This document shows positions 12,905-32,221 of a DNA stretch of 33,466 bases, piece after piece. Positions within the stretch are counted from its first letter, which is position 1; each line of letters starts with the position of its first letter. Location of the stretch: positions 1-33,466 of the IMG/VR virus record IMGVR_UViG_3300028481_000016; one strand, 5' to 3'. Source of the stretch: a virus. Below the pieces are notes generated by a model, which saw only the letters and a list, made by a program, of their open reading frames with translations, did no database searches and was not told where the DNA came from. The translations under genes were made by a program, and so were the position numbers.

Positions 12905-13007
12905 TAATAATCCAATGTTATCTCAGCTTGTGAATATGGCTAATAATGGAAACATAAACAACATAGAAAATATGGCTCGTCAATTGTTTCAGCAAAGATG
13001 TACTTGA
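12777..13007 (+). CDS. Small M/N/Q-rich hypothetical protein, probably 3'-truncated
   Basis: MNPIYQMV...NIENMARQLFQQR, then an abrupt CT-stop at the inferred deletion junction. Confidence 0.55.
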   Translation: MNPIYQMVSQQLATKNPMMATMIKNLSSGMTPKQMVMNMMKNNNNPMLSQLVNMANNGNINNIENMARQLFQQRCT

Positions 13008-13482
13008 AAACAGATACACAAATCAATTAGGGATACAACAAGTAATTGCAAATGACAATAATTGTTGTATGCAGACACAAAATCAAATTCTGAATAGTAA
13101 GTATGATCTGGATAAAGAGATATTACAGAACAGATACGAGAATTCTATACAGACGCAAACATTATCAGGACAATTGGCTCAGTGTTGTTGTGACATTAAA
13201 AACACAGCACATCAAGAGGGAGAAGCAACTCGCGCTTTGATTACTCAAAATATGATTGATAATTTGAGAGATCAATTAGCTGCTACAAGGGAACAATTAA
13301 CCAATGCTAGAAGTGCTAATTTGGCTAATTCAATAATGGCTGATAATGCAGCACAAACACAGACATTGATTAGTTCTCTTTTGCCAAGACCAGTACCAGC
13401 ATATCCTTCTGCGTCACCTTATATGGCGTATAATTGGAGCAACTATTTTAATAATGGTGGTTGCCCGTATAATAACATTTAG
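12997..13482 (+). pseudogene. 5'-truncated Cys-rich (QCCCD) conserved phage protein
   Basis: Frame is open from 12967 with coding-like DVLENRYTNQLG but has no start or RBS. Internal ATG 13069 lacks an RBS. Confidence 0.55.
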
Positions 13483-13636
13483 AAAATTTATTATCTTGCA
13501 TTTAAATCGACCATATTATAAAAAGGGTTTAAATTTGTACTTATTCGCTTAATGATTTAGGGTTTAAAGAAAAAAAGCAATAGCTTTGTAAAAACTTTTT
13601 TTGATGCAACGAGCTGATGAGTCAGCCAAAATTCAC

Positions 13637-13679
13637 AGGGATGAACGTCTGACTGAATTGTTCATTTCTGTTTTTTTTT
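13637..13679 (+). terminator. Terminator-like hairpin directly before the RBS of 13692
   Basis: ACAGGGATGAAC / GTTCATTTCTGT stem followed by a T-tract, then AGGAGG. Confidence 0.6.
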
Positions 13680-13691
13680 AGGAGGTTTATT

Positions 13692-14111
13692 ATGATCGAA
13701 GTTTATACTCAAAATGTAACAGTACCAGCAATGACTGCTATACCTTTTAATAACACGACAATTCAAAAGGGAATAACAGCAATAAAAACTGGAACTGCTA
13801 CTATTCAATTTAATCGTATTGGTGTTTATGTAGTATCTTTTGACGCTTCTGCTTCTTTGGCAGATGGTGGAACAACTGGTGATATTATTTGTCAGCTTTA
13901 TAAAAATGGCTCAAATCAAATTCAAGCGACTACAAGTGCAACATCTACAAGCGAAACAGACATTGTGCATATGTCATTCACAACGCTTGTTCAAGTACCC
14001 CAAAATAATACTTGCAATTGTGCTACTTCTCCGACTACAATACAAATAATGAATATCGGTGTACCTGCTTTATTTGCTCAAGCCGATCTAGTAGTTACTA
14101 AATTATGTTGA
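13692..14111 (+). CDS. Beta-sandwich protein, possibly BclA-C/C1q-like
   Basis: AIPFNNT..IQFNRIGVYVVSF..QLYKNG pattern; AGGAGG RBS. Confidence 0.55.
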   Translation: MIEVYTQNVTVPAMTAIPFNNTTIQKGITAIKTGTATIQFNRIGVYVVSFDASASLADGGTTGDIICQLYKNGSNQIQATTSATSTSETDIVHMSFTTLVQVPQNNTCNCATSPTTIQIMNIGVPALFAQADLVVTKLC

Positions 14112-14121
14112 GGGTGGAAAA

Positions 14122-14589
14122 ATGTATAATTGGGAAGAAATGTTTAATATAATTTGCAAAAAATATACAGGTGAAGCATTAAAAGAAAAATATGGTGCTT
14201 GTATGGAAAAATTTATGCGGAAATTAAAGAATGAAAATCAAGATTTATATTATGAGCTAATGTCTGGTTTATATGTTTTAGTTTTTGGCGAACATTTTAA
14301 TGAAGAACTAGCAAAAGAAGCGGTTGAAAATATGAAAAATGGAGACGGTACAACTGGAGCGCATTGGACATTACAAGAAGCAATAGAAATAGCCAAAAAT
14401 GAAGGAATAAGCTTTAAAAAATTTAACGAATATGATTGGTTTTATGTTTTGAATATGATTTACAGTGATTTTTATAAAGTATTCATAAACAATACAAATC
14501 TTTATGTTAAAACAGCTGTTGAATGGCTGAATGATATTGACGTAACACCAGGTAAAGCTTACAGATACTATATAAAAGTTGTAAAATAA
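14122..14589 (+). CDS. Conserved phage hypothetical protein (HWT..NMIYSD..WLND.D..GKAYRYY)
   Basis: Recognisable conserved motif set; last gene of the accessory block. Confidence 0.7.
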   Translation: MYNWEEMFNIICKKYTGEALKEKYGACMEKFMRKLKNENQDLYYELMSGLYVLVFGEHFNEELAKEAVENMKNGDGTTGAHWTLQEAIEIAKNEGISFKKFNEYDWFYVLNMIYSDFYKVFINNTNLYVKTAVEWLNDIDVTPGKAYRYYIKVVK

Positions 14590-17734: not shown

Positions 17735-17853
17735 AAATTTCCTCCACTACGATTTTTAACGCCTTTTTTCTTGGCTTGTGCCAACCTTTTTACGTCTTGC
17801 TGAGGACTAATTATTTTATATCACAACTAAATTATTAAATCAATTTTTTCTCT

Positions 17854-18033
17854 CGCGCGCGCGCGCGTATATATATATATCCTTTTATTTTTATATTTAT
17901 ATATTTAGGGGGCGTTTTGTCTCTCTTAACAAGAGAAGTTTGCCTTTTTCAGGTGGATATTTTACCCCCTTTGGGGTGGAGATTTTACCCCCTTTGGGGT
18001 GGAGATTTTACCCCCCCAAAAAACTGTGGATAA
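17854..18033 (+). promoter_or_regulatory. Replication origin module 1: (CG)n(TA)n tract, 3 x 23-bp iterons, DnaA box
   Basis: CG run 17854-17867 and TA run to 17880. GGTGGAGATTTTACCCCCTTTGG repeats start at 17952, 17975 and 17998. TGTGGATAA at 18025-18033. Confidence 0.85.
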
Positions 18034-18129
18034 CTTTTTTAAACTACTTGTTTTGATTTATGTATGTAAGTGATTTTTTTTGCATTTTTTTTAAAAAATG
18101 TGTTAGTATAATATTTGGGTGATTAAAAT

Positions 18130-18894
18130 ATGCGAGAAGAACAAAATTATTTGGTTGTAAAACACAACGATTTGATTCGTAAAGTTCAGGCTCTGTTATC
18201 CCTGACTGTAAACGAGCAAAAAGTTGCTTTGTATTTGGTTTCTTTGATTAATCCTGATGATAAGGATTTTGATGCTGTGCTTGTTTCAATTAGTGCGTTA
18301 TGCGAATTGTTTGGCTTAGAAAAAGAAAAAGGCAACTACAAAAACTTAAAAAAAGCAATAAAAGCTCTAAGTGATAAATCTCATTGGCTTAACGGAGAAC
18401 TCTTCCGCTGGGTTGATACAGCAAAAGTAATACCAAATAGCGGCATGGTTAGAGTAAAATTATCAGAAAGCTTAAAGCCGTATTTGTTGCAACTGAAAGA
18501 AAATTTTACTAAGTACAAGCTCTATAATGTTTTGGTTTTAAAGAGCAAATATTCCATTAGAATGTATGAATTAATAAAAAGCTATTTTTGGGAAGGAACT
18601 TATTCAGTAACAATCCAAGAATTTAAAAAGAGTATTTGTTGTGATGCTTTTAATGAATTCAAAGATTTTAATAAATGGGTTTTAGCCCCTGCGATAAAAG
18701 AAATAAATGAGTTAACAGATATCTATGTAGAGGTAACAAAACTTAAAACCGGCAAATGTATTACAGATTTAAAGTTTGATATACACGAAACAAGCGAAAA
18801 ACTTCCGTTTGACAAGATACTGTCTAAAATATATGAGGTAGATATGAGATTAAAGAAGGCATCATCCACATCTAAAAGAAAAAGAAAGTTTTAG
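18130..18894 (+). CDS. repB: Rep_3 (RepB-type) plasmid replication initiator 1
   Basis: VVKHNDLI, LKPYLLQLKENFTKY, LKSKYSIRMYELIKS and VLAPAIKEINE motifs. Confidence 0.92.
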   Translation: MREEQNYLVVKHNDLIRKVQALLSLTVNEQKVALYLVSLINPDDKDFDAVLVSISALCELFGLEKEKGNYKNLKKAIKALSDKSHWLNGELFRWVDTAKVIPNSGMVRVKLSESLKPYLLQLKENFTKYKLYNVLVLKSKYSIRMYELIKSYFWEGTYSVTIQEFKKSICCDAFNEFKDFNKWVLAPAIKEINELTDIYVEVTKLKTGKCITDLKFDIHETSEKLPFDKILSKIYEVDMRLKKASSTSKRKRKF

Positions 18895-18940
18895 AGGCAA
18901 TGTTTTTTAGTTTGGACCACTTTTTTGGCCCAAACTTTTT

Positions 18941-19303
18941 TTAAAAAAGTAGCAAATAAAATTTTTGTCCTTCGCTAAATCGCAATAAATAGACAGACAT
19001 ACCAGCTTCCAGTTTTGTTGGTATTTTTATTGTTATTTCCTGTTCTTTTATCGTATATTCCTTTTCTTCTTCATTTTCATCCAATAAATTAATTTTTTGC
19101 TCTGGTATTATTATTTTTTCTTCATGTTCTTTATATTCACTTGGGATAACCATCATATCTTCTTTTATATCGATAAACTGGCTTAAATTTATTTTTAACG
19201 GTTCTACTGAAATTATATTACCAATTAGAACATCAAGAGGTTTCTTTGTTTCAATAGCGTCAACGGCTATTTGTTTTATTATCTGTGTTAATTTTTGTTG
19301 CAT
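18941..19303 (-). CDS. Baseplate spike DUF2577 (XkdR-like)
   Basis: IKQIAVDAIETKKP..GNIISVEPLKI and LEAGMSVYLLRFSEGQKF motifs; ATG 19303 follows AAGGAG. Confidence 0.8.
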   Translation of the reverse strand: MQQKLTQIIKQIAVDAIETKKPLDVLIGNIISVEPLKINLSQFIDIKEDMMVIPSEYKEHEEKIIIPEQKINLLDENEEEKEYTIKEQEITIKIPTKLEAGMSVYLLRFSEGQKFYLLLF

Positions 19304-19334
19304 AAGCACCAGTGCTCCTTATTTAAAACCATTT

Positions 19335-19892
19335 TTACCACGCCCACAAACTTCCATCTGGTGCATTTGAAGGTGTGGTTGATTGTACATATATTTTCCT
19401 GCATGCGTCAGCTATTGTCCCATCTGAATTAAACACTGTTTTTTGATTCGTAGTTGTTCCGCTTGTAATACTTGAACTAACTGTCAAATATTGTATTCCG
19501 CTCGTCATTGCTAAATTTATTTTATTTGCATTTATTTCCATTGTATTATCAGTTGGCTCTTTAATTTGGACATTTGTCCCGTCACCAAAAGTCAAAGCAC
19601 AACCATAATTTGAACTTGAAGTTTTTAATTTGACATCTCCTGCAATCGTTCCACCACTTGATGAAAACGCACCTAAATTACTTAATGCTCCTGAAGCGGT
19701 ATTTGCGCCTGTTCCGCCTGCTGTTATTGGTACTACTCCACCGCCACCGCCTGATATATTACTGAAATCTGTATTTAACTTGTTATTTAAAGCGGTATCT
19801 ATTATGTCTGAGTTGCCGTTAAAATCATCGACATCAAAAAAATCATCTTGTGCTGGCTTCTTTAAATTATAATTCGGTGTATAACTCGCCAT
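19335..19892 (-). CDS. Short tail fibre
   Basis: N-terminal NLKKPA..DFN.N.DIID anchor shared with 19906-21183; GGTGA repeat; C-terminal VQSTTPSNAPDGSLW. Confidence 0.75.
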   Translation of the reverse strand: MASYTPNYNLKKPAQDDFFDVDDFNGNSDIIDTALNNKLNTDFSNISGGGGGVVPITAGGTGANTASGALSNLGAFSSSGGTIAGDVKLKTSSSNYGCALTFGDGTNVQIKEPTDNTMEINANKINLAMTSGIQYLTVSSSITSGTTTNQKTVFNSDGTIADACRKIYVQSTTPSNAPDGSLWAW

Positions 19893-19905
19893 TTAAAATC
19901 ACTCC

Positions 19906-21183
19906 TTATAAAATCATAATTTGTATATGTGTTTCATCAATGCGTTTCATAACACGATATTTTGTCTTTTCTTCTGAATATGTCGCAATTGAATTTTCAT
20001 TTGGTTTTACATATCCGTTAATCTCTGATGTTCCGTCATCAATACATATTAATTTTCCTAACAATCCAACTGCTATCCATTCTTTTCGTTTATCTCTTGC
20101 TATATATGGCTGAGTATTATCATATTGTTTTGAAACTTTAAGCTGTTCCTCTGTATGTTCTTCGACAATAATATTCCCGTCATCGTCTTTTTCTTCTGGT
20201 ATAGTCACAGTTTCATAAATTGGTCTGCCGAAAATATCTTGTTCAAACATATATGCCCATTGATCAGAATGTGAATCCCCTATTACTGACGGATTACCAG
20301 AAACAACGCCTAAAATATAATCATCTTGGCTAGTTGCAAGTTTTATTTTATCTCCGTCAAGAGTAACAAATTTACCAATTCTATCTTCATTTGCAATATT
20401 TCCATCAAGCCATTCAAACATTTCAGCATAGTCCGCACCAGAAGAACTATATGTTTTTCCGTAAACTTTTGATTCTGTCGCTCTTAAACAATTGGCTGTT
20501 GCCGAAGAACCTGTTCCACATCCAACAATAAAATAACCACTATCTGTTGTATAAGACAACGTAGAGCCTTTTTCAACATTATACCTTCCAACCACCGTTT
20601 GATAGAAATTAGCAGCAGTGTGATAACCAGTCGCATGCGAATAGTGACCCTTAGCCGCAGTGGCTTGACCCTCTGCATGCGCAAAATTACCACTTACTGT
20701 TGTATTCCACCCCTCTGCATGTGAATACATTCCACTTGCCGTTGTATTGTACCCCTCAGCATGTGAATAATTTCCACTTGCTGTTGTGTCGTCGCCTTCA
20801 CAAGTTGCGTATGAACCTATCGTTGTACCTGATTTTTGCCCTGTCCTTATATATCCATTAGCATTACCTGTCCCACCTGCTGTAATCGGTATCATTCCTG
20901 TTACATTGCTTAAATCTTTATCTGCCTTATTACTTAAAGCAGTATCTACGCCAAGATTAGTTAAAGCATCAGAAGCTGTTGTTGCTCCTGTTCCACCATT
21001 TGCTATTGCTATTGCTCCACCTGAAACATTTGAAAAATCGGTATTGAGTTTACCATCTAAAGCGGTATCTATATCCCCAACAGCCGTATCGATTATATCC
21101 GCATTGTTATTAAAATCAGCAACACTAAAATAATCAGTTCTTGCTGGCTTCTTTAAATTTAAATTTTCTGTGTAATCAGCCAT
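19906..21183 (-). CDS. Tail fibre with YadA-like 14-aa repeats and a C-terminal Peptidase G2 autocleaving chaperone domain
   Basis: TTASGNYSHAEG repeats; GADYAEMFEWLDGN..GKFVTLDGDKI and EWIAVGLLGKL motifs. Confidence 0.85.
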   Translation of the reverse strand: MADYTENLNLKKPARTDYFSVADFNNNADIIDTAVGDIDTALDGKLNTDFSNVSGGAIAIANGGTGATTASDALTNLGVDTALSNKADKDLSNVTGMIPITAGGTGNANGYIRTGQKSGTTIGSYATCEGDDTTASGNYSHAEGYNTTASGMYSHAEGWNTTVSGNFAHAEGQATAAKGHYSHATGYHTAANFYQTVVGRYNVEKGSTLSYTTDSGYFIVGCGTGSSATANCLRATESKVYGKTYSSSGADYAEMFEWLDGNIANEDRIGKFVTLDGDKIKLATSQDDYILGVVSGNPSVIGDSHSDQWAYMFEQDIFGRPIYETVTIPEEKDDDGNIIVEEHTEEQLKVSKQYDNTQPYIARDKRKEWIAVGLLGKLICIDDGTSEINGYVKPNENSIATYSEEKTKYRVMKRIDETHIQIMIL

Positions 21184-21209
21184 TTTAAAACTCTCCCCTT
21201 TTTAAACAA

Positions 21210-21839
21210 TTATAACTTTGCTATATCACTGAAAGTATAATCTTCTAAACTACCATAATCATAAGATTCTAAGTTTAAATATTCATTGATAAAAAAGTTT
21301 TCTTCTATCCTTATCTCATAACACGTATAATTCACTAATAATCTATATCTATACGGTTTTATAATTTTGTATTGATTGTATTTTAAGCTAACATTACATA
21401 TTAAATTTGCAGGTATTACTCTGGCTAATAAATTCGATACTTCATCAAATTGATTTTGTCGACTTAAACTTAATAGTACTGTAAGAGTATAATTCTCATT
21501 ATCTAAAGTCATAGTATAATCATCAGCACAAATATTACGCAAGAAATTTTCTAACTGTCTATAAGTATAAGGCAATGAAGCATTTATTCTAGCTAAAATT
21601 GCCAATCGTCTATCTTCTACTGTCGCTGTGCCTTTTGGAGTTATATCCAACATTTTTTCCCAACGTGTGCAACCTTGTTCGTCTAAAGTGTTTATAAATT
21701 GATTGTTAAACGTCTTCCTGTGATTTTCCCACAAACTATTTATAGTAGGATTTTCTGCATTTGCTATTTCTTGATATTCTGTTACATCCTTAATCACATC
21801 TGGCAAATAATCTAATATATCTATATTTAATCTATCCAT
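21210..21839 (-). CDS. xkdU: Baseplate protein DUF2313 (XkdU-like)
   Basis: YLPDVIKDV, RWEKMLDITP, EDRRLAILAR and VIPANL motifs; ATG 21839 overlaps the portal stop. Confidence 0.85.
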   Translation of the reverse strand: MDRLNIDILDYLPDVIKDVTEYQEIANAENPTINSLWENHRKTFNNQFINTLDEQGCTRWEKMLDITPKGTATVEDRRLAILARINASLPYTYRQLENFLRNICADDYTMTLDNENYTLTVLLSLSRQNQFDEVSNLLARVIPANLICNVSLKYNQYKIIKPYRYRLLVNYTCYEIRIEENFFINEYLNLESYDYGSLEDYTFSDIAKL

Positions 21840-23301
21840 TATTGCCTTCTTTTGCCCCTTTTTTAATATTATCATCTACATCATTATCTGTTTTTTTGCT
21901 ATCATTTACTTGAAGATTATTATTAACAAAATGTTCTTCTTGAATTTGTTTTTCTTCTTGTTCTACGTCATAAACATATGGATGATTTTTTAATAATGTT
22001 TTGTGTGAAACTATACCAACTGAATTTTTTATATCATTTATAACCTGTGATTCATTAGTTATTTGATCTTTATTAAATATAATTTCAGTATCATCATTAA
22101 AGAAATTGCCAATATTCCTATTTGCTAAATCTGCTTTGAAAAACCATAAAATTCGTTTTAAAGAGTGTTTAAATTCTAAATCCATACTATTTGCGTCCAT
22201 ATCTATATCATTCAATACAGATTTTATTTGTAGTTCATTAGGTTCATTTCCAGAACGTAAATCTATTGCGTCGTATGCTTTTGCTATGCTTATCATTTCT
22301 TTTTTTATAAACTCAATAAATTCTTTGTATTGCCCTGTATTAATTTCTACTTTTAATAATTTAACATCACCATCTTCTCTAATTTTAACCGCGCCATAAG
22401 TTGCTAAATTCTGTCTGAACTCGCCTAAATTTTCACCATCATAATTTTTTAATACTAATATTGAATTTCTGCTATCTTCCTGCATATCATTTCTCCAATC
22501 ACTCAAAGCAGTATTTAGAACATCTTGTAATGTTTTTAAATCACGTATTAAAGGCAACATAAAATAATTATACTTGAAATAAGTTATTGGTATTTTACCC
22601 CAATTATAATTTTTATTGTTAATTTTAAAATATGCTCCTGATTCTTTAGTTGTATCTTGTATTAATTGGTTATTAATAAAATTATAGTATTCTATACCAT
22701 CTTGTTTATATATTTCTACTTTATGGCATATCTTAAACTCACCATTTACATATTTTTTTATATCATAAAATCTAATAACAAATTCAAGTTCTGTTTTTTC
22801 TTCGTCTGCCCATATCGGTAAAATTTCATAAGGAGCAAATCTTTTTAATTTAAAATTGCCTTTTTCGTCATAGTAAGCATAAAGCCAACCAATGCCACAA
22901 TTAAGAGAATCAGCGCAAATAGCTTTCATCAATATATTAAAGTCATAGTCGAAATATTTGTTAATTTCATCTTGAAGTTTTTTATTAACAGCTAATTCTG
23001 CTAAAAAAGTAACGCTTTTACTTACTAGATAATTTGTCTTTTGGTCAACTAATTTTTTATATTGATTATCTACTATTTTATTATTCGGCAAATTATCTAC
23101 TTCTATAAGTTTCCCATCGTTACCTATTGCGGTTCTTTTTCTAAACAAAATATCATGTATTCCTTTATAGTACTTATTACCTGCTATTTGTTCCAATCTA
23201 TCTTTTGAAAATAACCAATCTACAATGCGTTTTTCGTTAACTTTCAAATTTATTGTTATTGGTTGTTCTGGCAAATCCTGTTTGAATAGATTTAAAAACA
23301 T
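21832..23301 (-). CDS. Portal protein, SPP1 gp6-like
   Basis: YYKGIHDI, NQYKKLVDQKTNYL and ILVLKNYDGENLGEFRQNL motifs; ATG 23301 follows AAGGAGG. Confidence 0.93.
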   Translation of the reverse strand: MFLNLFKQDLPEQPITINLKVNEKRIVDWLFSKDRLEQIAGNKYYKGIHDILFRKRTAIGNDGKLIEVDNLPNNKIVDNQYKKLVDQKTNYLVSKSVTFLAELAVNKKLQDEINKYFDYDFNILMKAICADSLNCGIGWLYAYYDEKGNFKLKRFAPYEILPIWADEEKTELEFVIRFYDIKKYVNGEFKICHKVEIYKQDGIEYYNFINNQLIQDTTKESGAYFKINNKNYNWGKIPITYFKYNYFMLPLIRDLKTLQDVLNTALSDWRNDMQEDSRNSILVLKNYDGENLGEFRQNLATYGAVKIREDGDVKLLKVEINTGQYKEFIEFIKKEMISIAKAYDAIDLRSGNEPNELQIKSVLNDIDMDANSMDLEFKHSLKRILWFFKADLANRNIGNFFNDDTEIIFNKDQITNESQVINDIKNSVGIVSHKTLLKNHPYVYDVEQEEKQIQEEHFVNNNLQVNDSKKTDNDVDDNIKKGAKEGNNG

Positions 23302-23339
23302 TTGTTTTACCTCCTTACATAATAGATTTAAAAACATTT
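23285..23339 (+). repeat. 19-bp direct repeat flanking the portal RBS
   Basis: AATAGATTTAAAAACATTT at 23285-23303 and 23321-23339. Confidence 0.85.
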
Positions 23340-23546
23340 TTATTCACTCCGCTTTTTATATACAAACATTTCTTGTATTGGAACTTTCAAATATTCACAA
23401 ATTGAAAACGCATAATCCATATTGGGTTGATATTTATTATTACACCATCTATTCACGCTTTGATATGAAACAAATATTGCTTCACTTAACTCCAATTCAC
23501 TTATCTTTCTTTCTTGAATAATCTTTTTTATATTGTTTTTAACCAT
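23340..23546 (-). CDS. XRE/HTH_3 transcriptional regulator
   Basis: NNIKKIIQERKISELELSEAIFVSYQSVNRWCNNKYQPN; ATG 23546 follows GGAGG. Confidence 0.85.
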   Translation of the reverse strand: MVKNNIKKIIQERKISELELSEAIFVSYQSVNRWCNNKYQPNMDYAFSICEYLKVPIQEMFVYKKRSE

Positions 23547-23562
23547 ATGAACCTCCAAGAAA

Positions 23563-23670
23563 TTGAGCCTTTCATGACTAAAACCACTAGATTCTTGGGA
23601 ACTCCTTTCTATTGAAAAGATATTTACCAAGCTATCCCGATAGTTCCCACCGTTCTTTTATTCGTCTACG
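23563..23670 (-). ncRNA. omegaRNA scaffold / IS200-IS605 right end of tnpB copy 1
   Basis: GAACGGTGGGAACTATCGGGATAGCTTGG...GAATCTAGTGGTTTTAGTCATGAAAGGCTCAA ends in TCAA; predicted guide 23543-23562. Confidence 0.75.
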
Positions 23671-24769
23671 CCACTTCTAACATCCTCAATCCTTCATTAA
23701 GAATATTTATGGCTGCATTTACATCTCTGTCATGATGCGTATGACAACAAGGACATTTCCATTCTCTAATACTAAGATTTTTCACATCCTTATTAACATA
23801 CCCACAACAATTACAAGTCTGTGAACTAGCATAGAATTTATCTACTTTAACAACTTGTTTTCCATACCAATTTGCTTTGTATTCTAATTGTCTTACAAAT
23901 TCTGACCATGACACATCTGCGATTGACTGTGCGAGTTTATGATTCTTAATTATATTCTTTACTTGTAAATCTTCTAGACAGATAACATCATTATTTCTGA
24001 TAATTTCAGTAGATAATTTTTGTAAAAAATCTTTTCTCTGATTAGCAATATGTTCTTGAAGTCTTGCAACTTTGATCCTTGCTTTATTACGATTTGAACC
24101 ACCTTTTGTTTTTCGAGATAGTTGTCTTTGCAACTTTGCGAGTTTATCTAAAGACTTCTTCAAATACTTTGGATTTGAAATCATTTCACCGTCAGATGTA
24201 ATACAAAATTCTTTTATTCCTAAATCAATTCCAACTACATTTTCAGTTTTCTCAAATGGTTTGATGTCCACATCTGTACAACAAATAGATACAAAATATT
24301 TTCCACTTGGTTTTTGTGATACAGTTGCATTAAGAATCCTACCTTTTGGTATTAACTTGTTTTTCGTCTTTACCATTCCAAGTTTAGGCAATTTAATATG
24401 CTTGTCACAATACTGAATATTTCCATTTACACATTTTGACTTATATGAAAATCTATGTGTTTTCTTGGATTTGAATTTAGGATAGCCAGTGTGTTCTTTA
24501 AAGAACTTTTGATAAGCATAATCCAAATCTTTAAGCGAAGATTGAAGAGCAGTAGAATCAACTTCTTTTAACCATTCCAACTCTGATTTGAGTTTTTTCA
24601 TGTCATTTGCACACTGTACATATGAAAATGTTTCTTTATTCTGTTCATACGTTTCAATTCGTTTTGCAAGATATTTATTATACACAAATCGACAGCATCC
24701 AAACGTTTTTGCAATTATTTCTTTTTGCTTTTTATTTGGATATATACGATACTTATAAGCTTTTTCCAC
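23666..24769 (-). CDS. tnpB: TnpB RNA-guided endonuclease (IS200/IS605 family), copy 1
   Basis: [12 protein letters not shown]; GIDLG, LEDL and [10 protein letters not shown] RuvC motifs intact; Zn ribbon; GTG start follows GAGGTG. Confidence 0.95.
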
Positions 24770-24809
24770 CAACTTCACCTCACTTTCTTTTTTGATAAGA
24801 AAATAAAAA

Positions 24810-25082
24810 TTAATTTGGAAAAACATATTTCATTGCTCTTGCACTATCATTTATCCCTTGTGTTGTTGGATCATTTATTGTATTTAAAACATTAATTACA
24901 ATAACTCCTAATATATAAGGGTTACATAGTGCATCTTTTAAAAGTTTAAATACTTTATCCCAACCTGTTAAATCTTTAAAATTTAATCCGTAATAAGTTA
25001 ATAATGGTGTAAAAACAGCTAAAAATACTTGCCACCACCAAATCGGATTATTTATTCTGACCGTCCAATTTATATCCATCAT
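24810..25082 (-). CDS. Holin, phiLC3 family
   Basis: [13 protein letters not shown] and [16 protein letters not shown] motifs. Confidence 0.92.
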
Positions 25083-25411
25083 TTTTCCAATGCTTCTATA
25101 CGTTTCAAAAGTTCATTGTACTTAATCTCTTGCGCGGTTAATTGTGCTATTATCAATACATATTCTGTTCCGTTATATTTAAGCTCATGAAAGATCTCAT
25201 AATTTGTATACACATAATCATTATCATTATCTTTTATTGTTATAGTTCCACTAATCAAATTTGTACTTGCAAAAGTTTTTAAATCTGTATTATTCCATTC
25301 TTTTAAATGAATAATTAAACATTCTCTATCCGCACCATGACTATAACGTCTTTCTAATTCTACCAATTCGCAATTTAATTCTAACCCACTCTCAAATATA
25401 ATTTTGCTCAT
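25079..25411 (-). CDS. Hypothetical protein, possibly a tail-fibre assembly helper
   Basis: ORF with a GGAGTGA RBS; C-terminal short coiled coil. Confidence 0.5.
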   Translation of the reverse strand: MSKIIFESGLELNCELVELERRYSHGADRECLIIHLKEWNNTDLKTFASTNLISGTITIKDNDNDYVYTNYEIFHELKYNGTEYVLIIAQLTAQEIKYNELLKRIEALEK

Positions 25412-25452
25412 ATTAAAATCACTCCATTTTTTTTATTCACAATCACATTTTA

Positions 25453-26424
25453 TCAATATTGAAAACCACTAACAAGTAAATCAGCAAAATATTGATCGTT
25501 AGAAAAATTATGAGTTGCATGTTCGACCAACATTAATTGTTGTAATATCAAATCACCAAGATCAAAATCACAATATACCGTTGCACCTGCTCTTAATCGT
25601 ATATCACCTAATGTATTTTTTATAGTCAACAAACGATTAGTTTTATTATATAAATTCAGCATAGTTTTAGCCTTATTAGTTGGATTTTCATTCTCATTTA
25701 ATTTTTCAGTTAATTGTAATATTCCCCATCTATCAACATTAAAATTATCTTGCTCTGGATAAAATTTACGCTGTTTTTCTATATCCTCATACAAAATAAT
25801 CTTGTTATATACTTCATTATCAATTGTAGTTTTATAATCAAAATTTTGTGTAGAATTACCATTAATAATTATATCATTTACAAGCAATGTATTTAAATCT
25901 ACTAATGACAATTTTCCTGCATCATCATATAAAGTAAATAACTTACCTGTATTTAAATAAGTCTCTGATATAGCAAACTGAATCATATCAATTAATGTTG
26001 TATTATCTTCTATTCTTGAAGATATCTTATACCCTGTATCTTGTATTTCCCCAGTAACTAAACCAAAATCAGAAGCTATCATTTTTACTAATTCAGAAGC
26101 AGTTTTATTCTCATATATATAAGTATGTTTATTTTTTAAATATCTCATCTGGTCATATGCTACAACTTTTATATGATGTTCTTTATCCCTTGACTTTTCA
26201 AAAACAAAACCTTTAAATATATCTTTTTGTTTATACCTAAATATTACTAAGCTCCCCTCATTAAACGAAACAAGATTATCTTTTATGACTGTAAACATTA
26301 ATTTGCTAGGCGAATCTTTTCTAAATGTTTCCCATATAATCTCATTTTTAACTATCGGAAAAAACATTTGCTTATCATAATTTTGTATATATAATTCAAG
26401 GTCAATAGACTTATTATCCAACAT
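25453..26424 (-). CDS. xkdQ: Baseplate hub / late control D protein (XkdQ-like)
   Basis: SPSKLMFTV, VAYDQMRYLKNK, LYDDAGKLSL and GDIRLRAG motifs. Confidence 0.9.
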   Translation of the reverse strand: MLDNKSIDLELYIQNYDKQMFFPIVKNEIIWETFRKDSPSKLMFTVIKDNLVSFNEGSLVIFRYKQKDIFKGFVFEKSRDKEHHIKVVAYDQMRYLKNKHTYIYENKTASELVKMIASDFGLVTGEIQDTGYKISSRIEDNTTLIDMIQFAISETYLNTGKLFTLYDDAGKLSLVDLNTLLVNDIIINGNSTQNFDYKTTIDNEVYNKIILYEDIEKQRKFYPEQDNFNVDRWGILQLTEKLNENENPTNKAKTMLNLYNKTNRLLTIKNTLGDIRLRAGATVYCDFDLGDLILQQLMLVEHATHNFSNDQYFADLLVSGFQY

Positions 26425-26451
26425 AAAAAAACACCACCGCTTATAAAACCG

Positions 26452-26856
26452 TTAAAATGGTAAATCAATGTTATCTAATTCTTTTAATTTATCATTATCT
26501 TCTTTTAAAAGTTCACTTAAATCTTTTTTATCGTCTTTTTTACTGTCAGCAAAATACTGTTCTTCCACAACAACTTCATTAACATAAACTTTTTCTTTTT
26601 TATCATTATCATAATTTCTAGTTTGTATTCTACCTATAACACCAAATAATCTACCTTTTTTCATATATTTTTCTGCAAACTCAGCGGACTTCCCAAAAGC
26701 AACACAATTTATAAAATCTGCTGATGGCTGTCCTTCTTTTTTAAACCGTCTATCTACCGCTAATGTATATCTAGCTATAGCTAACATATTCTCACTTTGT
26801 GTATATCTGACATCTGGATCTTTAGTTAAACGCCCAAGTAGTATTACTTTATTCAT
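26452..26856 (-). CDS. ssb: Single-stranded DNA-binding protein
   Basis: MNKVILLGRLTKDP, ADFINCVAFGK, acidic DLPF tail. Confidence 0.95.
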   Translation of the reverse strand: MNKVILLGRLTKDPDVRYTQSENMLAIARYTLAVDRRFKKEGQPSADFINCVAFGKSAEFAEKYMKKGRLFGVIGRIQTRNYDNDKKEKVYVNEVVVEEQYFADSKKDDKKDLSELLKEDNDKLKELDNIDLPF

Positions 26857-26875
26857 AATTTCCCCTCCATTTTAT

Positions 26876-27943
26876 CTATGCAGGTGACAAAGAATTTAAT
26901 GCAACAATATTATTTGCTTGTGCCTGATAATTTTCTGCCACATTGTTTATCTCTGTATCTGCAACATCTATTATACCAGAAACATTTAATAAATGTGTTT
27001 CAATTTGAGAAATTCTGACTATAATATTATTTTGGTTTTCCCAATCTGAATTCAATTCAAGCAAATATTGATTTATCGTCTGTTCCGCTAAATCTTTCAC
27101 ATCTTCCCATACATAACCATCTTGCAAAGTTATTTCTGATACTATATTGATATCTTCTACTCCTACTCCTGCGACTGTTACGACATGTCCTATTGGTGCA
27201 ATTCCTAACCCAGTACCGCTATTTTGTATCGGATCAATTATTGTTTGTACCTGATCAATCAATGTCAAACTCGGCTGTTGAAATAATGAATTTTGTATCA
27301 CCAATTTTACTGTTCCGCCACCATTCCAAACAGGATAAACTTTAACACCACCAACACCATCTATCGATTTTGTTTTATATTTATAATCAATTACATTCCC
27401 ACCAAATGCTTCTGTCTGTACGCTTAAAAAATATCTTTTTCTAAAATCTTCAGTGCTTTCTTCATCTTCTCCTGGTATTAATATTTCAGTTATTTCGGCA
27501 TATTCTAACCCTTGAATATAATTAATTGGTATTAATTGTCCTAAAACATAAGAAGGCTCTGCTCCTGTCTCTTCACATTGTAATTTATAATTCTCATCAC
27601 TTATTTTTTCAGTAACAATATAATTAAATTTATCAAGAGAAAATCTTTCTCCAATACTCAATTCCAAACTTGACGGTGTTATTTCTGCTTTAACTATACA
27701 ATGTGTAGCAGGATAAGGTGTTATCCCCCTTTCTTCTGCTCTTTTTATTAAGTATTCTCTTGAAGCGGTATCAGCAAACGTTTCATTTAATATTACATCC
27801 AAATTTATATACATATTTTGTAATTCGACAGCAGCAGGTGCTAATGCGTTATATACAATAGAACCCTGTCTTTTATCAATTGTATCTGGTACTCTTGCCA
27901 ACATCGCATTTAATATCACTTCAAAAGTATATTCTTCAAACAT
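26876..27943 (-). CDS. xkdT: Baseplate J protein (XkdT-like)
   Basis: MFEEYTFE, DKRQGSIVYNALAP, FGGNVIDY, WNGGGTVK and APIGHVVTV motifs. Confidence 0.93.
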   Translation of the reverse strand: MFEEYTFEVILNAMLARVPDTIDKRQGSIVYNALAPAAVELQNMYINLDVILNETFADTASREYLIKRAEERGITPYPATHCIVKAEITPSSLELSIGERFSLDKFNYIVTEKISDENYKLQCEETGAEPSYVLGQLIPINYIQGLEYAEITEILIPGEDEESTEDFRKRYFLSVQTEAFGGNVIDYKYKTKSIDGVGGVKVYPVWNGGGTVKLVIQNSLFQQPSLTLIDQVQTIIDPIQNSGTGLGIAPIGHVVTVAGVGVEDINIVSEITLQDGYVWEDVKDLAEQTINQYLLELNSDWENQNNIIVRISQIETHLLNVSGIIDVADTEINNVAENYQAQANNIVALNSLSPA

Positions 27944-27980
27944 TTTTATCACCTTTAAAATTATAACAATCTTATAACAC

Positions 27981-28018
27981 AAAAAAAAGATGGCTATTTG
28001 GGGAACCATCTTTTTTTT
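27981..28018. terminator. Bidirectional hairpin terminator
   Basis: AAAAAAAAGATGG-loop-CCATCTTTTTTTT. Confidence 0.75.
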
Positions 28019-28137
28019 AGCTTAGGTTTAAAATTTGTTAGATTCACAAAATGATTTTTATATACCATGCGGTCACCCGCTTTTTTAATATATCAATTAT
28101 AACATAAGCACATATTAAAAATTTTTACCATTAGGTT

Positions 28138-28184
28138 AAAAAAAGCAGTGGCAAATGCTGAGACAAACACCACTGCAAAAAAAA
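28138..28184. terminator. Hairpin terminator (T-tract on the minus strand)
   Basis: A-tract, GCAGTGG..CCACTGC, A-tract. Confidence 0.65.
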
Positions 28185-28229
28185 TAAAAGGTAATACTTT
28201 TGGATATTTTTTTGGAAGGAGATGATAAT

Positions 28230-28295
28230 ATGTTTTTATGTTTATTGTTGCTGTTGGTTATCCTTTTTTATTCTAAAACAGTGTACAAGATATAG
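28230..28295 (+). CDS. Possible 21-aa hydrophobic peptide (MFLCLLLLLVILFYSKTVYKI)
   Basis: GAAGGAG RBS; TM-like stretch with basic C-terminal residues. Confidence 0.35.
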   Translation: MFLCLLLLLVILFYSKTVYKI

Positions 28296-28336
28296 AATGA
28301 CATATATTTTTATATGAAATCTCAAAAAAATGTCAT

Positions 28337-28445
28337 TTGAACTTCTCATGACTAAAGCCACGAGATTCTTGGGAACTCTTTTCTACTAAAAAGATATTTA
28401 CCAAGCTATCTCGGCAGTTCCTGCCGTTATTGTTTATATTTACTA
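28337..28445 (-). ncRNA. omegaRNA scaffold / right end of tnpB copy 2
   Basis: Homologous to 23563-23670 and ends GAGAAGTTCAA; predicted guide 28317-28336. Confidence 0.75.
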
Positions 28446-29546
28446 TGCTGCATTTAATATTCTAAGTCCTTCATCAAGAATATTCTTTGCAGCATTGATA
28501 TCTCTATCATGATGTGTATTACAGTGAGGACAATACCATTCTCTTACTGAAAGATTTTTAGTATCTTTATTTACATATCCACATACGTTACAAATCTGAC
28601 TACTTGCATAGAATTTATCTATTTTAACAACCTTTTTCCCATACCAATTTGCTTTGTATTGAAGTTGTCTTACAAATTTTGACCAAGATACGTCTGCAAT
28701 AGATTGTGCAAGTTTATGATTTTTAATCATATTTTTTATTCGCAAATCTTCCATACAAACTACATCATTATTTCTGATAATTTCAGTAGATAGTTTCTGT
28801 AAAAAATCTTTCCTTTGATTTACAATATGTTCTTGAAGCCTCGCAACTTTAATTCTTGCTTTATTACGATTTGAACTACCTTTTGATTTTCGAGATAATT
28901 CTTTTTGTAATTTGACAAGTTTCTTTAGAGACTTCTTTAAATAATGTGGATTTGATATTATATCGCCATTGCTTGTAATACAAAATTCCTTTATACCTAA
29001 ATCAATACCAATACTATTATCTGTTTTGTCTAATGACTGAATATCAACATCAGTGCAACACAGTGATATATAATATTTTCCACTTGGCTCTTGTGATATT
29101 GTTGCGTTAAGTATTCTTCCTTGTGGTGTTAACTTGTTTTTCGTTTTAACCATTCCAACTTTAGGTATCTTTATATACTTCCAACAATACTGAATATTTC
29201 CATTTACACATTTTGACTTATATGAAAATCTATGCGTTTTCTTTGATTTGAATTTTGGATAACCAGAATGTTCTTTAAAGAATTTTTGATATGCTTTATC
29301 CAAATCTCTAAGTGATGATTGAAGAGCTGTAGAATCAACTTCTTTGAGCCATTCCAGTTCTGATTTGAGCTGTTTCATATCATTGCACATTGAAACATAT
29401 GAGAATGTTGTTTGACTTTGCTTATACATTTTGATTCTTTTAGCAAGATATTGATTGTATACAAAACGGCAACATCCAAATGTTTTAGACATTATTTCTT
29501 TCTGTTTCTTATTTGGATATATTCTGTATTTATAAGCCTTTTCCAC
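28443..29546 (-). CDS. tnpB: TnpB RNA-guided endonuclease, copy 2
   Basis: GIDLG, MEDL and [10 protein letters not shown] intact; close paralog of copy 1; its RBS overlaps the rep2 stop. Confidence 0.95.
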
Positions 29547-29552
29547 ATTTTT

Positions 29553-30608
29553 TCACCTCTTCAAAATCTCCTTAGGCAATTTATTTATATCGTCGTCTTC
29601 ATCATCATCTTCGCCAGTCTTATCAATAATTTTTCTTAAAGCGTCAAAATCCCATTGTTTATACTCGAAAGCAGGGAGACCAGGTTTTTTTCTAGGAGTA
29701 TTATAGGGTTTATTAACCCTTTCTTTTAAAACCTTCTTTTTAGAGTAATTGTATTTATATTGTGTGGTAGTGGTAGTTTCATTTAAATTCTCTATTTGTT
29801 TTTGTGGTTGCGTTATATTTTCTGTTTTGTTGGTTGTATCTATAATATTTTTTTGCTGTTTTGTTAGTTTTTTAGGGGATTCGGACAAATCAAATAGGAT
29901 TGATGTTACAGTACGACCTGTTTTGATTGTTTTATATTTGAACTTATAGTTTATTTTTTTTGCAAGTTCCTTTTGTGCTTTTTTAAGAATAAGATCATTA
30001 AAATGTCTAAAGTCATCATATGTTTCTTCTTTGTCACACCGTAAAACTTTTTTCAGATTTTCTACTTTCACTTCAAATGTATTTCTAAAACGATTGAGAG
30101 CTAAAAAAAGGAATAACATGTAATCACATTGTCGTTTTAAAGATATTGAATAGTTTAATTCATATGGGATATAGCCTTTTTTTTGTACGTTAAATATATA
30201 TTCCATTGCTTTTGCACTACATATCATTTTAATTTGTTGAACCCCAGAAGTATTTTCAGGATGGTCTGTTGCCTGGAGAGAGGCTGCCTCCATTAAGTTG
30301 AGCCAAACTTTAACACATTTACCGTTTATTTTATCTTCAATCTGAACTTTATTATTCATAAGTTGGTCTAGTGCAGGTTCGAGTTTTTCTTTTCGGATTC
30401 TCTTTACCCCAAATATTTTTTCAAGCAGACTCTTAGGAAAAACCACACATTTTGTTTCAGGATTACCCATATTTATTTTAGACAAATAGACATCAAAAAT
30501 TTTTAAAGCATATGATGACAAATTAGAACACCATAAAGCAAATAATGGTCTACTTTTGTTTATAATTGCCATTATATCACTACCAACCTTTTTGTTTTTT
30601 TCGATCAT
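29553..30608 (-). CDS. repB: Rep_3 plasmid replication initiator 2 with a low-complexity C-terminal extension
   Basis: KSRPLFALWCSNL..KIFDVYLSKIN, FRHFNDLILKKAQKEL and KTGRTVTSILF motifs; start may be the second Met. Confidence 0.88.
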   Translation of the reverse strand: MIEKNKKVGSDIMAIINKSRPLFALWCSNLSSYALKIFDVYLSKINMGNPETKCVVFPKSLLEKIFGVKRIRKEKLEPALDQLMNNKVQIEDKINGKCVKVWLNLMEAASLQATDHPENTSGVQQIKMICSAKAMEYIFNVQKKGYIPYELNYSISLKRQCDYMLFLFLALNRFRNTFEVKVENLKKVLRCDKEETYDDFRHFNDLILKKAQKELAKKINYKFKYKTIKTGRTVTSILFDLSESPKKLTKQQKNIIDTTNKTENITQPQKQIENLNETTTTTQYKYNYSKKKVLKERVNKPYNTPRKKPGLPAFEYKQWDFDALRKIIDKTGEDDDEDDDINKLPKEILKR

Positions 30609-30644
30609 AACAAATTCAAACCCTTTTTATTTTTTTTCATACAA

Positions 30645-30673
30645 ATAATAGCACAAAGAAAATAAAAAGTCAA
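30645..30673 (-). promoter_or_regulatory. rep2 promoter
   Basis: TTGACT, 17-nt spacer, TATTAT; near-inverted copy of the promoter at 31076. Confidence 0.75.
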
Positions 30674-30752
30674 TACATATTTTATTTATTTTACTTATAT
30701 GTAAATTAAGCCTTACAAAATCTTAATTACATAGTGAAAAAATTATTTTTAA

Positions 30753-31010
30753 TAAAGAAATACAATGTGGTTTTTAGTAAAGAAATACAATGTGGTTTTT
30801 AAAATATGAGTGGATTTTTTTATGACATATAGTGGATTTTTTTATGACATATAGTGGATTTTTTTATGACATATAGTGGATTTTTTTATGACATATTTTC
30901 TCGAAAGTCCGCTTAGTGTGGGGGCTTTCAGCCCCCCTTAATTCTTTTAAGAAAACCTTAATTATATATAAACGCGCGCGCGCGCGCGCGTACGTAAATA
31001 TATATATATA
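30753..31010. promoter_or_regulatory. Replication origin module 2: 2 x 25-bp repeats, 4 x 22-bp iterons, (CG)n/(TA)n tract
   Basis: TAAAGAAATACAATGTGGTTTTTA at 30753 and 30778. AGTGGATTTTTTTATGACATAT at 30809, 30831, 30853 and 30875. CG run 30973-30990. Confidence 0.88.
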
Positions 31011-31142
31011 CGTATATTAATTAATATATATATAGAGAAATGTAGTATTTAATTCACATAAAAACAAAATTTATATTGACTTTTTATTTTTCTTGTGTTA
31101 TATTTCATATGCAAAAAAAATAAAATAAAAGGAGTGGTAAAT

Positions 31143-31658
31143 ATGGAATGCCATAACAACAATAATATTAGAACAATTAATTTTAAGGACGCATTTGGGG
31201 AAAACAGTAATATTTACGATGTATTTGGTGATTTATTGTCAATTGAGGAAGAAGGACCAACATATGAGATACCAATACAACCATTAGAACCAGAACGTGA
31301 TTGCAGTGCGTTAATGGCAGAAACCATGAAAAACAGAAAAACAAATTTTCAACACCTAGTTAAACAAGCAGAAAAAGAAGGATTATATGGTATTGAAAAA
31401 TTTATCAATGATTGGGCAAAAGAAGCATATGTTTTATATGACACACAAGAAACACAAAAATACGATGGAGTTAATATTGATCCAAACTTACAAAAAGGAA
31501 TAGACGATATAGCAAGAAATTTGTTGGAGTGCGATAATAATACAGATGGGCTTGCTGTCCCATGCGGAAGTATTATTGAGCATGGAATTATTGCGAAATT
31601 ATATAAGCGTAGATATGAAGTATTACTTGAAGACAAAGCGAAAGAATACGGATTTTAA
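31143..31658 (+). CDS. Acidic hypothetical protein
   Basis: Promoter TTGACT-17-TATATT (31076-31104); AAGGAG RBS. Confidence 0.75.
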   Translation: MECHNNNNIRTINFKDAFGENSNIYDVFGDLLSIEEEGPTYEIPIQPLEPERDCSALMAETMKNRKTNFQHLVKQAEKEGLYGIEKFINDWAKEAYVLYDTQETQKYDGVNIDPNLQKGIDDIARNLLECDNNTDGLAVPCGSIIEHGIIAKLYKRRYEVLLEDKAKEYGF

Positions 31659-31666
31659 AAAAAGTG

Positions 31667-31918
31667 GTGAGGAAATAGGGGGACCTAAGTGAGGAAATAG
31701 GGGGACCTATCTCTCTTTAATCCTCCTTGTTAAGGACAGTTTCAGGCTCCTATAATCAAGATATATAATCAAGATATATAAATATATATATAAACGCGCG
31801 CGCGCGTACGTAAATATATATATAATATACGTATATAATATATATAGATAGATGTAATGTTTAATTTACATATTAAAATAATATTTGTATTGACTTTTAA
31901 TTTTTCTTGTGTTATAGT
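31667..31918. promoter_or_regulatory. Third origin-like module with no rep gene
   Basis: 2 x 22-bp GTGAGGAAATAGGGGGACCTA (31667, 31689); 2 x 13-bp TATAATCAAGATA (31751, 31764); CG run 31795-31806; promoter TTGACT-17-TATAGT (31890-31918). Confidence 0.65.
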
Positions 31919-32221
31919 TTGTACGTAAAAAAACAAAAAAATGGGGGTGGGAAAAAAAATGGCAGAACAACTAAAAGAAATGATGGCAACAGTATAACTA
32001 ATTACATAATAAAAAAACTCTAAACGATACAAATGATATATTTTTTTAATAGTAATAGCTTTAAATAAATTTTATGACGTCTAGCGCAAAAAATAAGAAA
32101 GTTTTAATATAAAAGGCATAAAATTATATGTATAAAAAAATAAATTGATTCTAAAACGTTTTAGAGGCTAATAATTACACTATAAAAAAACTCTATTGCA
32201 TAAGGTTTAAAAAAATGACTA

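Follow-up and report, generated by a model that had tools for sequence, protein, structure and literature searches.

Exchangeable Rep_3 origin modules in a probable multi-replicon phage-plasmid from the rumen

Origin modules of the window

The window analysed here is the whole of IMG/VR virus record IMGVR_UViG_3300028481_000016, 33,466 nucleotides (nt) of DNA, and the elements in question are its Rep_3-type replication origins, with their direct repeats (iterons) and initiator genes (rep). Three CG repeat runs, (CG)n, mark the origin modules. The octamer CGCGCGCG is confined to these runs, (CG)7 at 17854-17867, (CG)9 at 30973-30990 and (CG)6 at 31795-31806, against a chance expectation of 0.01 matches, and each run is 76 to 85 nt from its array of 22 or 23 bp iterons. 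Tandem Repeats Finder (TRF) identified a 23-mer in 2.8 copies at 17952-18015, a 22-mer in 4.2 copies at 30804-30896 and a 22-mer in 2.0 copies at 31667-31709, together with a 13-mer in 2.4 copies at 31751-31781 and a pair with a 25 nt period at 30746-30802. Two of the modules contain a rep gene. Both proteins, Rep1 and Rep2, have the Rep3_N (WH1) and Rep3_C (WH2) domains above the Pfam cut-offs, and they are 26% identical over 128 amino acids (aa). Rep4 of the related contig L209 also has both domains. The features are as follows.

Module 1, at locus A
17815..17843, minus strand: outward-facing promoter of the scaffold and capsid genes (TTGATT at 17838-17843, TGATATAAA at 17815-17823), read from the sequence
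17854..17867: (CG)7, start of the inserted module, bounded by comparison with empty sites
17868..17951, plus strand: predicted ori1 unwinding region, (TA)6.5 and TATATTTA 8-mers at a GC fraction of 0.16, then a 39 nt spacer with TTAACAAGAG (17926-17935)
17952..18015, plus strand: iteron set 1, 23-mer in 2.8 copies (GGTGGAGATTTTACCCCCTTTGG; TRF)
18025..18033, minus strand: perfect DnaA box TTATCCACA, lying between iteron set 1 and the promoter of rep1
18130..18894, plus strand: rep1, a 254 aa Rep_3 initiator (WH1 and WH2) of the small-plasmid RepB type (Rep3_N 8e-36, Rep3_C 1e-19)
18909..18936, plus strand: rep1 terminator hairpin, right end of module 1 (sequence and empty-site comparison)

Module 2, at locus B
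29553..30608, minus strand: rep2, a 351 aa Rep_3 initiator (Rep3_N 6e-11, Rep3_C 3e-12)
30645..30673, minus strand: rep2 promoter, TTGACT, 17 nt, TATTAT with TG
30754..30800, plus strand: two orphan Rep6-type iterons (AAAGAAATACAATGTGGTTTTT), 22 nt cores at 30754-30775 and 30779-30800 (TRF period 25, 2.3 copies)
30804..30896, plus strand: iteron set 2, 22-mer in 4.2 copies (TRF)
30897..30972: ori2 spacer (dyad at 30920-30936) and AT-rich stretch beside the CG run, from the sequence
30973..30990: (CG)9, border at which the type-specific origin gives way to the conserved promoter flank (flank comparison)
30991..31104, plus strand: TACGTA-(AT)n tract and outward promoter (31076-31104), with several of the least stable 30 nt windows of the genome
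31143..31658, plus strand: 171 aa open reading frame (ORF), function unassigned, which travels with the Rep2 cassette and has its 3' end against the apparently truncated ori3

Module 3
31667..31709, plus strand: iteron set 3, 22-mer in 2 copies, orphan and Rep3-type, with identical units before rep3 in relatives
31710..31794: ori3 spacer (TTAACAAGG at 31722-31733), 13-mers in 2.4 copies (31751-31781) and (AT)n, colinear with the origin of the related contig L215
31795..31806: (CG)6 of the orphan origin (pattern search)
31807..31997, plus strand: second TACGTA-(AT)n tract and outward promoter (31890-31918), from repeat comparison

The complete modules follow one order: (CG)6-9, an AT-rich part of about 45 nt, a spacer, 2 to 5 direct iterons of 22 or 23 bp, a promoter and rep. 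The AT-rich part, which is the predicted unwinding element, has 9-27% G+C and in most origins contains repeats of 8-13 nt; the spacer between it and the iterons is 30 to 40 nt with 34-54% G+C. Origins of the Rep3 and Rep7 types, found in relatives, also have a single distal iteron near the promoter. Ten of the 11 least stable 30 nt windows of the genome adjoin the three CG runs, and the 17868-17951 region is among the least stable. The runs themselves are among the most stable 30 nt DNA of the genome, (CG)9 being the most stable of all.

The initial annotation had described (CG)n, iterons and Rep_3 genes at these sites, with one architecture, a different iteron in each module and two highly divergent Reps, and all of this is borne out. 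Module 2 had been called a mirror form of module 1; it is not an exact mirror, its CG run being flanked toward the promoter by a long TACGTA-(AT)n tract and toward the iterons by only a short TTTATATATAA. The third set of (CG)n, 13-mers and 22 bp iterons, without a rep, is present as described, although it appears to be a truncated Rep3-type origin and no independent replicon. A fourth repeat set, at 30754-30800, had been overlooked.

There are two perfect DnaA boxes in the window and, among the modules, only module 1 has one. DnaA boxes were rejected as a general module feature, since matches with up to one mismatch are no commoner than chance. The GC dyad of the ori2 spacer was rejected as a conserved hairpin, there being no compensating changes in the related contig L198. 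No iteron-like inverted repeat was seen by eye at the rep1 and rep2 promoters. The motif TTAACAAG(A/G)G is found in the spacer between the AT region and the iterons of Rep1-, Rep3- and Rep7-type origins that are otherwise different (window 17926-17935 and, on the minus strand, 31722-31733; L215 and L219), and may be a host-factor site.

The genome and its virion genes

The record has a 130 nt terminal direct repeat of 99% identity, which gives a genome length of about 33,336 bp. An independent megahit contig (ENA ERZ27246388 k141_579762, 34,716 nt), from another assembler and another sample, has the gene order of the window and crosses its ends, with 99.8% identity across the 10.8 kb compared; the genome has been assembled independently at 99% identity or above. 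Together the repeat and the contig indicate a circular or circularly permuted genome of about 33.3 kb and no assembly chimera.

A complete PBSX/Xkd-like myovirus gene set was identified on this one circle with Pfam and PHROGs. The head genes are TerS, TerL, portal, scaffold, major capsid and a gp10-like protein. The tail genes are the tail terminator, sheath, tube, an XkdN-type chaperone, a short tape measure of 372 aa, homologues of XkdP, XkdQ, XkdR, XkdS, XkdT and XkdU, and the fibre. Lysis is represented by holin and amidase, and ERF, SSB, one XRE regulator and two TnpB genes are also encoded. No integrase was found, and none of the window ORFs scanned has a recombinase domain. Full virion and lysis genes and a plasmid replicon are therefore present on one molecule with no integrase, and the window is probably a complete circular myovirus-type phage-plasmid of about 33.3 kb from an uncultured rumen bacterium. 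Its portal gene has an 89%-identical match in the rumen metagenome-assembled genome RUG14399. No match was returned by megablast of the window against phage and plasmid collections.

The gene order is scrambled relative to PBSX-type phages, CheckV gives 72% completeness and IMG/VR calls the record linear, which would suit an assembly chimera, plasmids and phage fragments fused as a cointegrate, or a multipartite phage of which this is one segment. The initial annotation had raised a cointegrate, mis-joined contigs and a segmented phage ancestor or state, and these possibilities can now largely be set aside as very improbable. The same order across the window's ends was obtained with another assembler from another sample and there is the 130 nt terminal overlap; no essential virion function is missing, even the short tape measure and TerS being present on the one circle; no sub-circle was found among the contigs fetched; and relatives with the same backbone have a single rep, at locus B, in the sequence fetched.

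Strain-level insertions and deletions are seen among genomes that are at least 99% identical (window coordinates 12888-14490, 23666-24826 and 28443-29546). The 1.6 kb block at 12888-14490 is absent from contigs L206, L207 and L212. The TnpB gene beside rep2 is absent from G003, L217, L218 and L223, and the one near the holin gene is absent from G003. In relatives the region 3' of rep has an uncharacterised gene of 188-229 aa and a 199 aa serine recombinase with Resolvase and HTH domains (L198 2338-4297; L215 9813-11576). The window has neither, which could be relevant to the resolution of multimers or to the scrambled gene order.

Rep types and iterons in related contigs

A total of 23 sequences, the window and 22 related contigs, were compared, with Reps typed by tblastn and iterons by pattern. 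Seven Rep types were identified, each of which always adjoins its own iteron type in every origin seen.

Rep1: window, G001
Rep2: window, L198-L201
Rep3: L215-L217
Rep4: G002, L209
Rep5: G003, G001
Rep6: L218, L223, L224
Rep7: L219

In every complete origin of the seven types a (CG)6-9 run is present 75 to 85 nt from the first iteron (measured by hand in L224), and the sequences in between are unrelated. The ratio of nonsynonymous to synonymous substitution rates (dN/dS) within Rep types is 0.27-0.44; the comparison of Rep2 with its 94%-identical copy in L198 gives 0.44. The rep1 gene is nucleotide-identical in 8 other contigs, so that selection on it is not measurable.

Pattern searches returned no match for CG-TACGTA-AT in metagenome contigs, and AAA(CG)6 in viral contigs gave mostly unrelated high-GC phages. 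Four unrelated low-GC viral contigs have AAAA(CG)7-8 beside a divergent regulatory region (L047 2720, L075 2001, L110 7515 and L115 3712), with 4-5 copies of a CCCAAAATTGGGA-type repeat about 300 nt from the CG run. It is possible that (CG)n beside iteron-like arrays is more widespread in low-GC phages.

Probable exchange of specificity at locus B

The two sides of the (CG)n run behave differently when modules are oriented alike. On the promoter side, 120 nt are 84-96% identical among locus-B modules whatever the Rep type. On the origin side, the 120 nt are alike only within a Rep type (module 3 and L215, 85%; module 2 and L198, 87%; G003 and G001, 92%), and all other pairs are at the AT-rich background of 55-65%. 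The break in identity falls at (CG)n.

At the far end of the module, the last 70-80 or so residues of Rep2 (within 29556-29795, minus strand) form a tail with almost no variation among Rep types 2, 3, 5, 6 and 7 (…PGLPAFEYKQWDFDALRKIIDKTGEDDD…), threonine-rich and then acidic, whereas the WH1-WH2 parts of the same Reps are only 32-50% identical. Within a library of 1.8 billion representative proteins this tail is nearly confined to the group. It is absent from the closest plasmid Reps, and Rep1 and Rep4 are also without it. The tail might serve for the docking of a conserved partner. Beyond rep, the neighbours are also shared: in L217, L218 and L223 the gene lies beside the same baseplate-J/SSB/XkdQ block as rep2 of the window, but without TnpB. 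The conserved flank, conserved tail and common neighbour block suggest that specificity is replaced as a cassette between two conserved anchors, the replaced segment extending from (CG)n into the variable part of rep. This is the pattern expected from homologous recombination.

In relatives, rep3 and rep7 are driven by the same promoter and leader as rep2. One promoter family (TTGACTTTT(T/A)ATTTT…TGTTAT) serves rep2 (30645-30673, minus strand), the 171 aa ORF (31076-31104, plus strand) and a remnant ORF (31890-31918, plus strand), as well as rep3 and rep7 (L215 at about 8725-8760); it is a portable cassette that could be a recombination anchor. A copy of the 30991-31104 tract and promoter, 75-84% identical, is present at 31807-31939.

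Within module 2 the iterons are themselves variable, with 2 to 5 copies among near-identical assemblies. One G/A change is common to all iteron-2 copies when 30804-30896 is compared with L198 873-982, indicating concerted evolution of the array. The 171 aa ORF beside it has counterparts of 171-173 aa, similarly placed next to Rep2 in L193 and L198-L201, the likeness being one of position and length only. It had no match in Pfam, PHROGs, PADLOC, NCBIfam or the ESM Atlas. Its start is more likely to be ATG 31143, as called in L193, than GTG 31095, because the latter is inside the ORF's own promoter.

The orphan origin and the orphan iteron pair

Module 3 has no rep. Its cognate Rep was traced through homologues of Rep2: the L215 origin of the Rep3 type is colinear with window positions 31660-31806, each having a CG run (6 repeats in the window and 7 in L215), the same 13-mers, the same spacer with TTAACAAG and identical iterons (2 and 3). 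The colinearity runs to 'CACTTTTTTTAAAA', and the homology ends there, at the stop codon of the 171 aa ORF. Beyond this point L215 continues with the distal iteron, the promoter and rep3, so that its array of iteron-3 units is 3 copies and a distal one; the units also precede rep3 in L216 and L217. The position of this break indicates that module 3 is the distal part of a Rep3-type origin whose rep has been displaced. From this comparison it appears to be the truncated origin of a Rep type found only in relatives (L215-L217) and no independent replicon. At its other end, a 12-codon remnant (31959-31997) is all that is left of an ORF of about 100 aa that G003 and G001 carry at the same place. 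The Rep7-type origin of L219 has two adjacent iterons and one distal copy, which suggests that the cis elements of module 3 may respond to Rep3 in trans. The exact iteron-3 pattern gave 0 matches in viral contigs, and 26 single-copy matches in metagenome contigs were rejected as chance, in unrelated and mostly high-GC DNA.

The repeat set at 30754-30800 is a second stranded element. Its 22 nt unit is exactly that of the 3-copy array directly before rep6 in L224. The pair, with 25-26 nt spacing, is found in all Rep2 modules, including those of 94%-identical Rep2, with L198, L199 and L201 among the carriers, and in G001 it is on the opposite side of (CG)7, beside the Rep5 origin. Apart from G001, the pattern gave two chance matches in viral contigs. 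The pair thus appears to behave as a mobile unit of about 54 nt, which could be a relic, an operator or a decoy.

It can be suggested, tentatively, that (CG)n is a dedicated portable boundary, both recombination linker and insulator or clamp, which would make Rep_3 origins exchangeable as cassettes across a community of phage-plasmids, and that the orphan Rep3-type origin and Rep6-type pair are kept as decoys. If so, the decoys would titrate or handcuff the initiators of competitors, a form of superinfection exclusion by incompatibility, or allow replication on a competitor's Rep. Neither orphan set matches a Rep of the window itself in the way that the rep-less incA iterons of phage P1 match the RepA of P1.

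Insertion at locus A

Locus A is the intergenic site between the scaffold and XkdR genes. These genes are adjacent in L215, L217 and L218, where the site is empty and the scaffold promoter intact. The comparison shows module 1 as inserted DNA of about 1.09 kb, from 'ttttctct(CG)7' to the rep1 terminator; the promoter at 17815-17843, also present at the three empty sites, is part of the backbone outside it. Near-identical set-1 iterons adjoin the 99%-identical Rep1 of G001. A Rep1 homologue of 93% identity is encoded on a 47 kb contig, and homologues of 46% on small contigs. Downstream of rep1, L209 and G002 have a tandem Rep4 module, with 56 nt of duplicated backbone flank and (CG)7, and this accounts for the extra length of about 1.2 kb in the contig carrying Rep4.

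The extra modules might be silent passengers, recently captured from small plasmids, with only the locus-B origin working. The nearest relatives of Rep1 outside the group are the Reps of plasmid-like contigs of 2-8 kb and of rat-gut plasmids, module 1 is a discrete insertion with rep1 nucleotide-identical in all copies, and there is no skew inflection at this module. Such a passenger origin is nevertheless unlikely: no part of module 1 is missing between (CG)7 and the terminator, rep1 is intact, the Rep1 homologues that exist at 88-93% identity are likewise full length, and the module has the group's own (CG)7 at the standard spacing, 84 nt from the iterons.

In phage P1 the plasmid (oriR/RepA) and lytic (oriL/RepL) replicons are separate. 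A similar division of labour, with one replicon for the plasmid prophage and the other for lytic replication, is hinted at by a perfect DnaA box in module 1 alone, which may mean a different host dependence, and Rep1 and Rep2 are in different Rep_3 clades. However, in relatives with the same backbone locus A is empty and only a locus-B Rep is found in the sequence fetched, and Rep4 is present in one strain and absent from another. The extra reps therefore look accessory rather than obligatory, and this division is improbable.

Possible roles of the (CG)n run

The nearest plasmids in PLSDB are three from the rat gut, pRGI00363, pRGI00069 and pRGI00460, with Reps that are 38-42% identical. Each has short CTTGATTA-type repeats, a spacer, 22 bp iterons in 4-5 copies, a promoter and rep. 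None of the three has a (CG)n run; there is a GC-rich stretch at its position that is clear in pRGI00460 and moderate in pRGI00363. The run is thus not required by Rep_3 origins as such. It appears instead to characterise this phage-plasmid group, and even the modules of Rep1 and Rep4, from other Rep_3 clades, have acquired it. No described equivalent of a fixed (CG)6-9 run 75-85 nt from iterons was found in the literature searched.

A doubtful possibility is that (CG)n is mainly an intrinsic terminator or insulator, shielding an origin that lies within a phage genome, with its unwinding element and iterons, from outside transcription. A terminator scan called (CG)n with the T-rich run as a terminator in the origin-ward direction, and in most modules the (CG)n RNA hairpins, of -6 to -15 kcal/mol, are followed by UUUAU or UUUUU. 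The small plasmids, which are without strong neighbouring operons, are also without (CG)n, and the minus-strand genes at 33078-32222 read toward module 3. On the other hand, the tails after (CG)n are not U-rich in module 1, L219 and L224, the RNA folds no better than shuffled sequences, and no gene in the window provides nearby transcription toward module 1. The preferred reading is that (CG)n would be a stable border of the unwinding element, as a clamp or supercoiling sink, and also a short universal microhomology for cassette exchange.

A probable multi-replicon phage-plasmid

The initial annotation had offered a multi-replicon phage-plasmid as one of its explanations, and the presence of two complete Rep_3 replicons on one circle with a full virion set agrees with it. 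The observed anatomy, Rep-iteron pairing, breakpoints, empty sites and independent assemblies suggest, with a rough probability of 0.7, that the window is a multi-replicon phage-plasmid built by the exchange of Rep_3 origin cassettes, with two complete replicons and the rep-less remains of two others.

Locus B would be the ancestral replicon slot of the whole group, in which at least five Rep/iteron specificities (Rep2, 3, 5, 6 and 7) have replaced one another between (CG)n with its outward promoter and the conserved 3' end of rep, encoding the tail. In the window, an incoming Rep2 cassette is proposed to have displaced rep3, its promoter and the promoter-proximal iteron, leaving module 3 behind, and to have brought its own CG/TA-promoter unit and the 171 aa ORF. 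Locus A would have gained the rep1 module by insertion, and a sister strain would have added the Rep4 module in tandem. Each Rep presumably recognises the iterons of its own module and opens the AT-rich DNA beside them. The multi-replicon state may have arisen by recombination among co-resident phage-plasmids and small plasmids, selected to escape incompatibility.

Several points weigh against this interpretation. The firing of either complete origin is predicted from anatomy, and the array of module 1 holds only 2.8 iterons. The cumulative GC skew reaches its lowest point near 31 kb without an inflection at module 1, a measure confounded by gene orientation. Iterons 1, 2 and 6 have a GTGG(A)TTTT core in common, so that cross-binding is possible. 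No partition genes were found in the window, and a circular assembly is by itself no proof of a plasmid state. The relatives with a single rep are seen in part, as 11-20 kb of 27-32 kb, and a second rep may be present elsewhere in them. Finally, the small-plasmid relatives presumably replicate without (CG)n.

Phage-plasmids are increasingly seen as common, and the coexistence and exclusion of related ones are poorly known. The group is a compact natural system, with seven initiator/iteron specificities and genomes that stack two or three replicons. As the stranded origins have matching initiators in relatives, a direct test of incompatibility-driven evolution in phage replication modules becomes possible. 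In a phage genome that is densely transcribed, the (CG)n run may be an example of how an origin gains insulation or portability.

Comparison with known systems

The modules resemble the Rep_3 theta replicons, such as those of pPS10 RepA, F RepE, pSC101 and the lactococcal pCI305-type RepB, which likewise have a WH1 and WH2 initiator, 22 or 23 bp direct repeats upstream of rep, and an AT-rich region with short repeats beside the iterons, with a DnaA box that is found here in module 1. The three rat-gut plasmids have the CTTGATTA-type short repeats in common with the Rep3- and Rep6-type origins of this group. The group differs from these gut-plasmid replicons in having (CG)n, an extra C-terminal tail on the locus-B Reps, and origins inside a phage genome.

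Multi-replicon plasmids likewise have two to three complete rep-ori units per molecule, gained and lost between close relatives; examples are the IncF plasmids, with FIA, FIB and FII, and multireplicon plasmids of Staphylococcus aureus (PMC13672794). Here the carrier is a tailed phage and the units are cassettes of about 1.1 kb bounded by (CG)n. Transposase-mediated fusion is not evident, because the TnpB gene next to rep2 is absent from G003, L217 and L218.

In the O protein of lambdoid phages the specificity part co-varies with the iterons, the C-terminal part is conserved, and alleles are exchanged by recombination in conserved flanks. The variable DNA-binding part, conserved C-terminus and exchange among related phages are alike in the two cases. 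However, O is not a Rep_3 protein and ori-lambda is inside gene O, whereas here the origin is upstream of rep and there are several alleles per genome.

Phage P1 is kept as an iteron-controlled plasmid (oriR-repA-incA) and has one further iteron array without a rep. The RepA that P1 itself encodes binds these incA iterons, whereas the orphan iterons here match Rep3 and Rep6 types that the genome does not encode. The cp32 elements of Borrelia are related prophage-plasmids with differing maintenance loci, and hence are able to coexist, and they are not known to use Rep_3. Multi-replicon plasmids and the exchange of initiator/origin alleles among phages are therefore already known. What is new here is the combination of the two in a tailed phage-plasmid lineage, together with a fixed (CG)n boundary and stranded heterologous origins.

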